From IMG/VR virus record IMGVR_UViG_2663762648_000012: a stretch of 5,436 nucleotides of DNA. One strand, written 5' to 3'. Below are positions 1 to 5,436 of this stretch, in pieces (positions within the stretch are counted from its first letter, which is position 1; every line of letters begins with the position of its first letter). Source of the DNA: a virus. Its lineage: Duplodnaviria > Heunggongvirae > Uroviricota > Caudoviricetes. Under the pieces are notes generated by a model. It had not been told where the DNA came from. It did no database searches and saw nothing but the letters and a program-made list of their open reading frames with translations. A program made the translations under genes and the position numbers.

Positions 1-181
1 CTACCAGTGCCGGTGCGGCGAAAACGTTAGAAACGAATGCGGCAGCGTCACAACAATCAGCAGCCACTTCTGCATCCACCGCGACGCCTCAAAAAGCGCG
101 GCGGCCACCAGTGCCGGTGCGGCGAAAACGTCAGAAACGAATGCTGCAAGTTTCATCGTGGGTGTCGGTTATAAATTCTGA
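1..181 (+). CDS. 3' end of an upstream ORF entering the window (partial, possibly a pseudogene or chimera): Stf-type Ala/Ser-rich repeat sequence joined to a Lom/Ail-family outer-membrane-protein C-terminus
   Basis: Reading the frame that ends at TGA 179-181 gives ...[31 protein letters not shown]-stop. The last ten residues, with terminal aromatic Phe, match the C-terminal beta-strand of lambda Lom as I recall it, and the stop-to-stf spacing (65 bp) and downstream terminator are lambda-like. However nt 1-85 are identical to stf nt 838-922 and nt 87-148 match stf 820-881 with 3 mismatches, so the body is stf-repeat sequence, not a Lom barrel. Two frames are open across 1-148, so the true frame is uncertain. 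Confidence 0.35.
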   Translation, partial: YQCRCGENVRNECGSVTTISSHFCIHRDASKSAAATSAGAAKTSETNAASFIVGVGYKF

Positions 182-207
182 TTAGCCAGGTAACACAGTG
201 TTATGAC

Positions 208-235
208 AGCCCGCCGGTTCAGGCGGGCTTTTTTG
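208..235 (+). terminator. Rho-independent terminator between the lom-like ORF end and stf
   Basis: Perfect GC-rich 8-bp stem (208-215 agcccgcc, pairing with 222-229 ggcgggct), 6-nt loop, followed by a T-run (tttttt, 229-234). Same position and near-identical sequence to the terminator downstream of lom in phage lambda (recalled). Confidence 0.7.
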
Positions 236-245
236 TGGGGTGAAT

Positions 246-3200
246 ATGGCAGTAAAGATTTCAGGTGTACTGAAAGACGGCACAGGAAAACCGGTACAGA
301 ACTGCACAATCCAGCTGAAAGCAAAACGTAACAGCACCACGGTGGTGGTGAACACGCTGGCCTCAGAAAATCCGGATGAAGCCGGGCGTTACAGCATGGA
401 CGTTGAGTACGGTCAGTACAGCGTTATTCTGTTGGTGGAAGGATTCCCGCCGTCACATGCCGGGACCATCACCGTGTATGAAGATTCCCGACCCGGTACG
501 CTGAATGATTTTCTCGGTGCCATGACGGAGGATGATGCCCGTCCGGAGGCACTGCGCCGTTTTGAGCTGATGGTGGAAGAGGTGGCGCGTAACGCGTCCG
601 CGGTGGCACAGAACACGGCAGCCGCGAAGAAATCAGCCAGCGATGCCAGCACATCAGCCCGTGAGGCGGCAACCCATGCGACTGATGCTGCAGATTCAGC
701 ACGTGCAGCCAGCACGTCAGCCGGACAGGCCGCTTCGTCGGCTCAGTCAGCGTCTTCCAGCGCAGGAACGGCATCAACAAAGGCCACTGAAGCCTCAAAA
801 AGTGCTGCCGCTGCAGAGTCCTCAAAAAGCGCGGCGGCTACCAGTGCCGGTGCGGCGAAAACGTTAGAAACGAATGCGGCAGCGTCACAACAATCAGCAG
901 CCACTTCTGCATCCACCGCGACCACGAAAGCGTCAGAAGCTGCCACCTCAGCCCGGGATGCGTCGGCTTCAAAAGAGGCGGCAAAATCATCAGAAACGAA
1001 CGCATCATCAAGCGCCAGTAGCGCAGCTTCCTCGGCGACGGCGGCTGCAAATTCTGCGAAGGCGGCCAAAACGTCCGAGACGAACGCCAGGTCTTCTGAA
1101 ACGGCAGCGGGACAGAGTGCCTCAGCTGCGGCAGGCTCAAAAACAGCGGCTGCGTCGTCTGCCAGCGCCGCGTCAACAAGTGCCGGGCAGGCCTCAGCCA
1201 GTGCCACCGCCGCCGGAAAATCGGCAGAAAGCGCCGCATCATCCGCTTCAACAGCCACAACGAAGGCTGGCGAAGCCACTGAACAGGCCAGCGCAGCAGC
1301 GAGGTCTGCTTCCGCAGCGAAGACATCCGAAACGAACGCGAAAGCGTCGGAAACCAGCGCAGAATCCTCAAAAACGGCTGCCGCATCGTCCGCCAGTTCG
1401 GCGGCGTCATCGGCATCATCGGCGTCTGCTTCAAAAGATGAGGCGACCAGACAGGCGTCAGCAGCGAGGGGCAGCGCCACGACGGCATCCACGAAGGCGA
1501 CAGAGGCTGCTGGTAGTGCGACGGCAGCAGCTCAGAGCAAAAGTACGGCGGAATCTGCAGCAACGCGCGCTGAGACAGCGGCAAAACGGGCAGAGGATAT
1601 TGCATCCGCCGTGGCGCTTGAGGATGCGAGCACGACGAAAAAGGGGATAGTACAGCTCAGTAGTGCGACTAACAGCACTTCCGAGTCACTGGCGGCAACA
1701 CCAAAAGCCGTTAAGGCCGCGTATGACCTGGCTAACGGGAAATACACCGCACAGGATGCAACGACAGCACAGAAAGGGATAATCCAGCTAAGCAGCGCGA
1801 CCAACAGCACGTCTGAAACGCTGGCGGCAACGCCAAAGGCAGTAAAAGCAGCCAATGACAATGCTGAGAAACGTCTGCAGAAAGATCAGAACGGTGCGGA
1901 TATCCCTGGCAAAGACACCTTTACGAAAAATATTGGTGCCTGCCGTGCCTTCGGTGGGTCAGTAAGCACAACAACAGGAAACTGGACGACTGCACAGTTT
2001 ATCGAGTGGCTGGATTCTCAGGGAGCATTTAACCATCCATACTGGATGTGCAAGGGTTCCTGGTCTTATGGCAATAATAAAATCATTACTGATACTGGCT
2101 GCGGTAATATTCATCTCGCCGGAGCTGTCATTGAAGTAATGGGGATAAAGTCAGCGATGACGATCCGCATTACCACTCCGACCACATCCAGCGGTGGCGG
2201 AACAACCAACGCCCAGTTTACCTATATTAATCACGGAACAGATTATTCACCTGGCTGGCGAAGGGACTATAACTCCAGAAATAAGCCAACGGCATCAGAG
2301 ATCGGGGCGCTACCGTCAGGTGGAACAGCAGTATCATCAGTTAATCTGGCTTCAAAAGGTCGGGTAGCCGCGCTGACAGACAATACGCAGGGGGCAGCAG
2401 GTCTTGAGTTATACGAGGTGTATAACAACGGATATCCAACAGCGTATGGAAATATCATTCACCTGAAAGGGATGACAGCCGTTGGCGAAGGTGAGTTACT
2501 CATCGGCTGGAGTGGTACAAGCGGTGCTCATGCTCCGGCATTTATTCGTTCACGACGGGATACGACCGACGCAAACTGGTCGCCGTGGGCGCAGCTTTAC
2601 ACCTCGGCTCATCCTCCTGCAGAGTTTTATCCAGTCGGTGCACCAATCCCGTGGCCATCAGATACCGTTCCGTCTGGCTATGCCCTGATGCAGGGGCAGG
2701 CTTTTGACAAATCTGCTTACCCGAAACTCGCAGCCGCTTATCCGTCAGGCGTGATCCCTGATATGCGTGGCTGGACGATTAAGGGCAAACCTGCCAGTGG
2801 TCGTGCCGTATTGTCTCAGGAACAGGATGGCATTAAATCGCACACCCACAGCGCCAGCGCATCCAGTACGGATTTGGGGACGAAAACCACATCGTCGTTT
2901 GATTACGGCACTAAATCCACGAATAACACCGGGGCGCATACGCACAGTCTGAGCGGCTCTACAAGTTCAGCTGGGGCCCACCAACATAGTCAGACTGGGC
3001 CCAGAACGAATAGCGGGAGTCAACCTACTGGAATGTTTCCGGCAGGGAGTACTCAAGTTAGCGGGACTAATCAGGTTGGTATCAGTGGCTCATTAACCAG
3101 TGGCACCTCCCAATGGGTAGGTAAATCATCTTCAGAAGGAAACCATACACACTCACTGTCCGGCACAGCAGCATCTGCGGGTGCACACGCGCATACTGTC

Positions 3201-3329
3201 GGTATTGGTGCTCATACGCACTCTGTTGCGATTGGTTCACATGGACACACCATCACCGTTAACGCTGCTGGTAACGCGGAAAACACCGTCAAAAACATCG
3301 CATTTAACTATATTGTGAGGCTCGCATAA
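246..3329 (+). CDS. stf: Side tail fibre protein (lambda Stf family), about 1027 aa; N-terminal lambda-like region, Ala/Ser-rich repeat shaft, duplicated [15 protein letters not shown] motif, a lower-GC central domain, and a His-rich HxH C-terminal tip
   Basis: Single long ORF from the six-frame track (240-3329). I place the start at ATG 246 ([26 protein letters not shown]..., matching the lambda Stf N-terminus) rather than the in-frame GTG at 240; a G-rich Shine-Dalgarno (gtgggg) lies just upstream. The C-terminus ...[31 protein letters not shown] matches the lambda Stf C-terminus. Stop TAA at 3327-3329. Confidence 0.95.
590..1640. repeat. Ala/Ser/Thr-rich low-complexity region of imperfect repeats inside stf (recurring AAKTSETNA-type units)
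   Basis: The translated sequence is almost entirely A/S/T/K/E with repeated motifs ([48 protein letters not shown]). The DNA is GC-rich with related units such as gcgaaaacgttagaaacgaatgcg, gccaaaacgtccgagacgaacgcc and gcgaagacatccgaaacgaacgcg. This also explains the long spurious antisense ORFs here. Confidence 0.6.
1641..1721 (+). repeat. Copy 1 of a duplicated 27-codon motif ([27 protein letters not shown]) within stf
   Basis: Direct repeat with copy 2 at 1773-1853, 132 bp (44 codons) apart and in frame. The two copies are identical at 25 of 27 residues but differ at many synonymous third positions. Confidence 0.8.
1773..1853 (+). repeat. Copy 2 of the duplicated 27-codon motif ([27 protein letters not shown]) within stf
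   Basis: See copy 1: same amino-acid motif, with divergent synonymous sites. Confidence 0.8.
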
Positions 3330-3910
3330 TGGCATTCAGAATGAGTGAACAAGCACGGACCATAAAAATTTATAACCTGCTGGCCGGAACTAATGAATTT
3401 ATTGGTGAAGGTGACGCATATATTCCGCCTCATACAGGTCTGCCTGCAAACAGTACCGATATTGCACCGCCAGATATTCCGGCTGGTTTCGTGGCTGTTT
3501 TCAACAGTGATGAGTCATCGTGGCATCTCGTTGAAGATCATCGGGGTAAAACGGTTTATGACGTGGCTTCCGGCGACGCGTTATTTATTTCTGAACTCGG
3601 CTCATTACCGGAAAATGTCACCTGGTTATCCCCGGAAGGGGAGTTTCAGAAGTGGAACGGCACAGCCTGGGTGAAGGATACGGAAGCAGAAAAACTGTTC
3701 CGGATCCGGGAGGCGGAAGAAACAAAAAACAGCCTGATGCAGGTAGCCAGTGAGCATATAGCGCCGCTTCAGGATGCTGTGGATCTGGAGATCGCAACGG
3801 AGAAAGAAACCTTGTTGCTGGAAGCTTGGAAAAAGTATCGGGTGTTGCTGAACCGTGTTGATACATCAACTGCACCGGATATTGAATGGCCAGTAGCACC
3901 TATAGGGTAA
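3329..3910 (+). CDS. tfa: Tail fibre assembly protein (lambda Tfa family chaperone), 193 aa
   Basis: ORF 3329-3910 ([54 protein letters not shown]...[10 protein letters not shown]) matches lambda Tfa as recalled, near-identical over the N-terminal part. Its ATG overlaps the stf stop in a TAATG arrangement (3327-3331), consistent with translational coupling, and gtgagg (3315-3320) provides a Shine-Dalgarno about 8 nt upstream. Stop TAA at 3908-3910. Confidence 0.93.
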
Positions 3911-3993
3911 ATTCGTAATGATTACCTAAATACGTTATTCTTTTGTTAAAAAAGTGATTTTGCTATAGGTAGGGAGTATGTTCTTGGATTAAG

Positions 3994-4027
3994 AATAAAA
4001 AATCGCCATGAAAGAGCTTCATGGCGA
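3994..4027 (-). terminator. Candidate rho-independent terminator oriented for leftward (minus-strand) transcription
   Basis: Perfect 10-bp inverted repeat (4003-4012 tcgccatgaa, pairing with 4018-4027 ttcatggcga) with a 5-nt loop. On the minus strand the stem is followed by TTTTTTATT (complement of 3994-4002). On the plus strand no T-run follows, so it is not a good terminator for tfa. Confidence 0.4.
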
Positions 4028-4169
4028 ATACATAAACGTACAAAATGTGATGAAAGTAGAGTGGCGTAAGCCACTATATTAAGATATAACAATAGCGAAG
4101 AAAAGTAAATAACATTTTATGGACGTTTAATTTTTAATTATAAAAACTAGAGTGCCCGATATTGTTTAT

Positions 4170-4178
4170 CTTGCTTTA
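4170..4178. repeat. Left copy of the 9-bp target-site duplication (CTTGCTTTA) generated by IS1 insertion
   Basis: The 9 bp immediately left of the IS1 left end (4170-4178) are identical to the 9 bp immediately right of the IS1 right end (4947-4955). A 9-bp duplication is the characteristic IS1 size. Confidence 0.9.
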
Positions 4179-4201
4179 GGTGATGCTGCCAACTTACTGA
4201 T
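4179..4201. repeat. IS1 left terminal inverted repeat (IRL, about 23 bp)
   Basis: ggtgatgctgccaacttactgat; the reverse complement of the right end (ggtaatgactccaacttattgat) matches at 18 of 23 positions, as expected for IS1's imperfect inverted repeats. Confidence 0.85.
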
Positions 4202-4233
4202 TTAGTGTATGATGGTGTTTTTGAGGTTCTCCA

Positions 4234-4509
4234 GTGGCTTCTGTTTCTATCAGCTGTCCCTCCTGTTCAGCTACTGACGGGGTGGTGCGTAACGGCAAAA
4301 GCACCGCCGGACATCAGCGCTATCTCTGCTCTCACTGCCGTAAAACATGGCAACTGCAGTTCACTTACACCGCTTCTCAACCCGGTACGCACCAGAAAAT
4401 CATTGATATGGCCATGAATGGCGTTGGATGCCGGGCAACTGCACGCATTATGGGCGTTGGCCTCAACACGATTTTACGTCACTTAAAAAACTCAGGCCGC
4501 AGTCGGTAA
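4234..4509 (+). CDS. insA: IS1 InsA (transposition inhibitor / DNA-binding protein), 91 aa
   Basis: ORF starting at GTG 4234 ([51 protein letters not shown]...LKNSGRSR) matches IS1 InsA as recalled, including the Cys-rich zinc-finger-like N-terminus. A Shine-Dalgarno-like tgagg sits 7 nt upstream. Confidence 0.93.
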
Positions 4510-4931
4510 CCTCGCGCATACAGCCGGGCAGTGACGTCATCGTCTGCGCGGAAATGGACGAACAGTGGGGCTATGTCGGGGCTAAATCGCGCCAGCGCTG
4601 GCTGTTTTACGCGTATGACAGTCTCCGGAAGACGGTTGTTGCGCACGTATTCGGTGAACGCACTATGGCGACGCTGGGGCGTCTTATGAGCCTGCTGTCA
4701 CCCTTTGACGTGGTGATATGGATGACGGATGGCTGGCCGCTGTATGAATCCCGCCTGAAGGGAAAGCTGCACGTAATCAGCAAGCGATATACGCAGCGAA
4801 TTGAGCGGCATAACCTGAATCTGAGGCAGCACCTGGCACGGCTGGGACGGAAGTCGCTGTCGTTCTCAAAATCGGTGGAGCTGCATGACAAAGTCATCGG
4901 GCATTATCTGAACATAAAACACTATCAATAA
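4428..4931 (+). CDS. insB: IS1 InsB reading frame (catalytic part of the InsAB' transposase produced by a -1 frameshift from insA)
   Basis: ORF in the -1 frame relative to insA, overlapping its 3' end ([53 protein letters not shown]...HYLNIKHYQ), matching IS1 InsB as recalled. The coordinates are those of the ORF as computed from the first in-frame ATG; the functional product is the InsA-B' fusion. Confidence 0.9.
4485..4491 (+). other. Programmed -1 ribosomal frameshift site (A6C slippery motif) joining insA to insB
   Basis: The heptamer a-aaa-aac lies in the insA frame (LKN codons) just upstream of the insA stop, within the insA/insB overlap. This is the documented IS1 recoding site that yields InsAB' transposase. 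Confidence 0.8.
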
Positions 4932-4946
4932 GTTGGAGTCATTACC
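4924..4946. repeat. IS1 right terminal inverted repeat (IRR, about 23 bp)
   Basis: atcaataagttggagtcattacc; this is the inverted partner of IRL at 4179-4201. Confidence 0.85.
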
Positions 4947-4955
4947 CTTGCTTTA
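4947..4955. repeat. Right copy of the 9-bp target-site duplication (CTTGCTTTA)
   Basis: Identical to 4170-4178 and immediately abutting the IS1 right end. Confidence 0.9.
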
Positions 4956-5436
4956 AAATAATGTACTCAAACCAAATTTTTGAGCTAAAAGCTCAAATAA
5001 TATAAATGCAATAATAATGTTTAATAAGACAATTAGCTTGCTTTGTATTTTCATTTCGGAATACTGTTAAGTAACTTTGATGACCCTAACAATAGATCGG
5101 AATTTTCTTAGAGTCAATGGTCACTGTTTTTGCTTGCAAAGCAAATGTTTTGGTGGTTATAAGTCGTCTTAATATAGTCACGCATGCAACTTGTTCCATG
5201 CGGAGATTAAAGATTGGAATATAACGCGAAGATGGAATTAAATTACATTTGCAATAATTAATTTATTATTACTCAATAATTACCGATATTATTATTGTAA
5301 ATTAATCATTAGAGTGCAAAAAGAAATGTAACGGCAAAATAAGAGGACGATAGCTGAGAAAAAAGCGTGCTTTCCCAATCTGGGGCAAATCACGTCTGAA
5401 TGACACCTGAAAACAGGTGGTAGCCTCAAGAAGGCT

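Follow-up and report, generated by a model that had tools for sequence, protein, structure and literature searches.

The first 181 nt of this stretch of DNA raise the question of whether repeat sequence from a side tail fibre gene, stf, has truly been fused to the last codons of lom, or whether the two were only brought together during assembly. Both possibilities were put forward in a first-pass annotation of the sequence. The window (the whole stretch of DNA that was analysed) was found to span the entire 5,436-bp contig CXFX01000215.1 of the draft assembly GCA_001261315.1, and therefore nt 1 of the window is a contig end. Comparison with the public record of CXFX01000215.1 showed identity at 5,435 of 5,436 positions, with nt 149 as the sole difference. 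This nucleotide is the only N of the contig, and it sits exactly between the end of the second stf-like copy (nt 148) and nt 150, where the alignment with the lom of relatives begins. The chance that the sole N among 5,436 nt would fall accidentally at the boundary between stf and lom is about 1 in 5,000. Read from its position, the N most likely marks a scaffold join of a mini-contig of 148 nt to the main contig; in principle, a single N could also be an ambiguous base call. As nt 149 is an N, the junction between the stf repeat and the lom tail is not a determined sequence, and the adjacency and the reading frame across this position were never sequenced. Uninterrupted base-called sequence, as would be expected across a real junction, was thus not present here. 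The features of the window are collected in the table below.

Table. Features of the 5,436-bp window (nt positions in the window).
Feature	Position	Strand	Remarks
Copy A	1..85	+	identical to nt 838-922 within stf of the window; first bases of the contig
Single G between the copies	86..86	+	C at the corresponding nt 923 in stf of the window
Copy B	87..148	+	62-nt segment equivalent to stf 820-881, of a different allele
Placeholder base	149..149		N in CXFX01000215.1, A in the window
lom, last 10 codons and stop	150..181	+	main contig truly begins here; colinear with relatives from nt 150
Intrinsic-terminator-like hairpin and T run	208..237	+	hairpin 208-229, downstream of lom
stf, intact side tail fibre gene, 1027 aa	246..3329	+	segments 820-922, the source of both copies, lie within it
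tfa, tail fibre assembly gene	3329..3910	+	PF02413; alternative start 3341
IS1, complete, 768 bp	4179..4946	+	canonical terminal inverted repeats; 9-bp target duplication CTTGCTTTA at 4170-4178 and 4947-4955

The presence of an A in the window where the record has an N indicates that ambiguous bases were evidently replaced, and such replacement can make false continuity of open reading frames elsewhere.

Recomparison of the letters confirmed that nt 1-85 have 100% identity to stf 838-922 and that nt 87-148 match stf 820-881 with three mismatches, which are located at nt 106, 132 and 145. An exact repeat of 85 nt within 5.4 kb is far beyond chance. The copies had been described as units of 103 bp lying in different frames; the frames do differ, but the true start-to-start period is 104 nt, made up of the 103-nt stf segment 820-922 and the extra G at nt 86. 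At the position matching nt 86, ...GCGACGACG is found in many natural stf alleles. The Stf reading of copy A is in window frame 3 and that of copy B in frame 2, which the lom stop codon at 179-181 shares. Microhomology was absent at both boundaries, 85/87 and 148/149.

Copy A represents the window's own stf allele. The three differences of copy B reproduce another common natural stf allele exactly, and copy B is 100% identical to the stf of E. coli IAI1 type and to 30 prophage stf genes in IMG/VR, with normal stf sequence on both sides of it in all 30 of these natural occurrences. Based on these matches, the 148-nt piece reads as a mosaic of two stf alleles, arranged head to tail without microhomology. 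The possibility that copy B is a mutated version of the window's own stf was rejected, since its three differences match a common natural allele exactly. Junction 85/87 lies inside contiguous sequence, and it could have originated from a gap-filling error, as an allele chimera or as a real variant.

On the other side of the placeholder, nt 150-181 encode FIVGVGYKF, the conserved last strand of the Ail/Lom family (PF06316), followed by a stop codon. The terminator after lom and the intact stf behind it were found as first annotated, with the hairpin at 208-229, its T run and the open reading frame at 246-3329. The end of lom had been read as SFIVGVGYKF and as being in frame with copy B. Copy B does share frame 2 with the stop at 179-181, but the continuity of this frame and the Ser residue both rest on the placeholder base nt 149, which is the first base of the AGT codon. 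The closest relatives have a G at the position matching nt 149, which gives GGT (Gly). Natural lom alleles with AGT (Ser) exist too, for example in E. coli ATCC 8739, and the agreement with the window is coincidental.

Members of the Ail/Lom family are characterized by a signal peptide and an eight-stranded barrel in a protein of about 170-200 aa with the PF06316 domain. The open reading frame that ends at nt 181 does not have this architecture: no signal peptide and no barrel were detected, and Pfam gave no hit in its 59-aa reading. No ATG, GTG or TTG start was found within the window in the frame that connects copy B to the lom tail, and this frame would end at a stop codon in the case of stf sequence further upstream. 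The reading frame of Stf, in turn, would run into a nonsense tail of 33 aa. Nothing significant was found with Pfam in either of these two readings. A translated fusion of the repeat to the tail of an outer membrane protein was rejected, as the frame has no start codon and a stop closes it given stf upstream. With an N as boundary base in addition, neither the chimeric stf/lom junction announced in the first-pass annotation nor the repeat::OMP-tail protein that it suggested could be upheld.

Additionally, we searched for the two junctions in other genomes. A real junction would be expected to recur in independent genomes or assemblies, and this was not observed in the collections searched. For junction 148/149, nt 105-200 matched thousands of complete E. 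coli genomes, with a query coverage of at least 80% in 0 of 5,426; the best matching places in these genomes covered the lom half only. For junction 85/87, a 52-nt probe was used that was centred on the junction so that neither flank alone reaches the E-value limit, and sensitive blastn gave no match in the 5,426 complete E. coli genomes. A natural in-frame 35-aa repeat expansion of some stf allele, with a 1-nt deletion in the present allele, was also considered, and it was rejected because this probe remained unmatched although the blastn search was gapped. The exact junction strings were not found in GTDB species representatives, IMG/VR or JGI metagenome contigs. Among 50,697 phage records, nt 1-148 matched only as two permuted pieces, which were located within about 100 nt inside ordinary tail fibre genes and never beside a lom tail. 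Complete Shigella genomes were sampled only through a few loci, by exact protein look-ups. Recurrence of the junction in other prophages, which had been raised as a check, was seen in none of the complete E. coli genomes, phage records, GTDB representatives, IMG/VR records or metagenomes.

At the protein level, a collection of 5.8 billion proteins was searched with a 258-aa query that represents the hypothetical truncated Stf with its out-of-frame tail. The chimeric tail was present in none of the 120 best hits; the query returned ordinary partial Stf fragments or frameshifted Stf, and none of them contained the junction peptide. As a protein query, the 56-aa chimeric tail alone gave no candidates, since its length is insufficient for the word index. 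The same collection contains hundreds to thousands of partial N-terminal fragments of Stf, and this abundance indicates that the Ala/Ser-rich region is a routine breakpoint of short-read assembly.

The closest relatives show what ordinarily lies at this position. Three loci with an identical Tfa, namely the complete 4.82-Mb chromosome CP104423.1, AKNC01000068 and a 24.7-kb draft contig, are 99.6% identical to and colinear with nt 150-4178 of the window. Upstream of the equivalent of nt 150, all three have J and a lom pseudogene, and no stf sequence. The pseudogene carries an 83-nt deletion between TGGCG direct repeats, which shifts the frame so that the product ends in SNTSLAH followed by a stop. 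This deletion (6797-6810 in the loci of the relatives) ends 8 nt before the point at which the main contig starts.

The window differs from its Shigella relatives at 15 positions, distributed over three patches (1283-1468, 2678-2792 and 4028-4133), and six of the seven differences in the first patch match the allele of E. coli MLI023K1. The pattern of these patches suggests gene conversion between stf alleles, or paralogous copies that were mixed during assembly. Several assemblies with the same S. sonnei-type N terminus of Stf break at stf aa 183 (about window nt 794), and the lom gene upstream is intact in some of them and deleted in others. This split hints at either two paralogous J-lom-stf copies or lineage variation. 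IS1 is not present in the closest relatives at the site corresponding to 4179-4946, and the insertion looks genuine and specific to the isolate or its lineage. The other end of the contig, nt 5436, falls exactly where the relatives carry another copy of IS1 (relative locus 11320), so that the contig probably breaks at an IS1 repeat boundary on this side.

The remainder of the window, with the terminator, stf, tfa and IS1, is ordinary. The product of stf contains the N-terminal domain PF08400 (1.4e-71), fibre repeats (PF03406) and a collar domain (PF07484), and with tfa located downstream it has the complete set of features of a lambdoid Stf. Its first 183 residues are those of a partial S. sonnei protein. 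The exact Stf protein was not found in the protein cluster collection, and as an encoded gene it was found only on CXFX01000215.1. The Tfa product from start 3341 is identical to a Shigella sonnei tail fiber assembly protein that is present on at least 1,000 contigs. Judged by these protein matches, the contig belongs to a short-read Shigella draft, most likely one of S. sonnei. Within stf, a direct repeat of 107 nt is present at 1621-1727 and 1753-1859 (74% identical, with a spacing of 132 nt), and it corresponds to two Phage_fiber_2 repeats (PF03406). A 245-aa open reading frame called on the minus strand at 743-1480 runs antisense to the Ala/Ser-rich repeat within stf and is almost certainly spurious, a product of the GC-rich composition of the repeat.

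Taken together, we consider it very probable that the stf/lom junction is an artefact of assembly and scaffolding that looks continuous through the substitution of the N by an A. Of the two alternatives in the first-pass annotation, the artefact is favoured by the contig end, the N at the boundary and the lack of recurrence, and real recombination is not supported; the mechanism, however, differs from the one proposed. Instead of a mis-join read through the repeat, a join of a separate 148-nt mini-contig by a scaffolder is more likely. A de Bruijn graph mis-join via shared k-mers was rejected: neither boundary shares sequence, which excludes such a join, whereas a join through a placeholder can explain the observation.

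According to the scaffold-join explanation, nt 1-148 would be a separate short contig derived from the Ala/Ser-repeat region of stf, in which two alleles were mixed. Scaffolding and gap filling would then have placed this mini-contig in front of the main contig, whose left end lies in the lom tail at about nt 150, and the join would have been marked with the single N at nt 149 that appears as an A in the window. Read pairs anchored in the mini-contig would have their mates in the neighbouring stf and so link the two pieces, because the mini-contig is nearly identical to stf 820-922 in the main contig. A greedy scaffolder could then place the mini-contig only at the contig end, with a gap that is zero or negative. 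Tools of the SSPACE/GapFiller type may mark a gap of zero or negative length with just one N. An N close to the contig end, flanks without shared sequence and a piece that duplicates the interior of the neighbouring contig were all observed here, as expected for a scaffold artefact. We infer both the responsible software and the reason why read pairs linked the pieces. In the pipeline of Page et al. 2016 (PMC5320598), which combines Velvet, SSPACE and GapFiller, an N gap is inserted where read pairs connect two contigs, and its greedy tools "can lead to false joins". This pipeline is a plausible origin of GCA_001261315.1. In the literature, we found no paper that cites CXFX01 and no explicit statement of the single-N convention of SSPACE/GapFiller.

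The other readings that have to be weighed all take the first 148 nt as true sequence of the isolate. That a real rearrangement took place here, in which most of lom gave way to a partial stf duplication and to filler from a second stf allele, leaving a pseudogene or an N-terminal Stf fragment with an out-of-frame tail upstream of the intact stf, is in our view highly improbable. It is true that the three segments share their orientation and derive from one type of locus, and that the order of a repeat end, a unique linker and the repeat again is one possible look of a collapsed tandem duplication at a contig start. The stf of the isolate is also mosaic in comparison to its relatives, which indicates that recombination among stf alleles happens. 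However, the rearrangement would require two novel junctions within 63 nt, both without microhomology and one of them with an N as its boundary base. Its junctions occurred in none of the collections searched and a matching protein was not found, in the relatives the upstream position is taken by J and a lom pseudogene, and the presumed fusion frame lacks a start codon and would run into a stop.

Alternatively, nt 1-148 could be genuine but misplaced, and belong to a second, paralogous stf in another prophage that has an imperfect internal duplication of 104 nt. This would agree with copy B being a natural allele unlike that of the window, and with the median of 2 matching places per genome among the E. 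coli genomes that have a match to nt 1-400. The S. sonnei-type assemblies that break at stf aa 183, with an intact or deleted lom upstream, are compatible with paralogues as well. We nevertheless regard this origin as very unlikely, since junction 85/87 was not found in complete E. coli genomes, phage records, IMG/VR, GTDB representatives or metagenomes, and since a copy A of the own allele next to a copy B of a foreign allele fits better to an assembly chimera of two alleles. It is very unlikely that the isolate truly carries an imperfect two-allele stf duplication of about 104 nt, be it directly ahead of the lom tail or within another prophage. If it did, paralogous side tail fibre genes in a decaying Shigella prophage would recently have undergone illegitimate recombination or gene conversion to give this duplication. 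Under either of the two rival readings, the event would be a minor one at the pseudogene level in a decaying prophage.

With the scaffold join as the preferred explanation, the stf/lom join has no biological significance, and its lesson is one of data handling. A single N may conceal a scaffold join in draft contigs, and when this N is swapped for a real base an apparent in-frame gene fusion results. When a chimeric junction is found a few hundred bases or less from a contig end, the original record should be inspected for Ns prior to any interpretation.

In comparison to known systems, the window from nt 150 onwards has the same order of lom tail, terminator, stf and tfa as the lambda-type J-lom-stf-tfa module. 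It is colinear with the prophage modules of E. coli and Shigella from this point, and only the first 149 nt depart from them. With the Ail/Lom beta-barrel proteins (PF06316) it shares the last strand FIVGVGYKF, but only 10 codons of such a gene are present in the window. The left end of the contig resembles artefacts of the SSPACE/GapFiller type in having a very short repeat-derived contig that is joined through N at a contig end, in the lack of shared sequence at the join and in the duplication of the interior of the neighbouring contig, whereas the gap here consists of a single N and not of a run.
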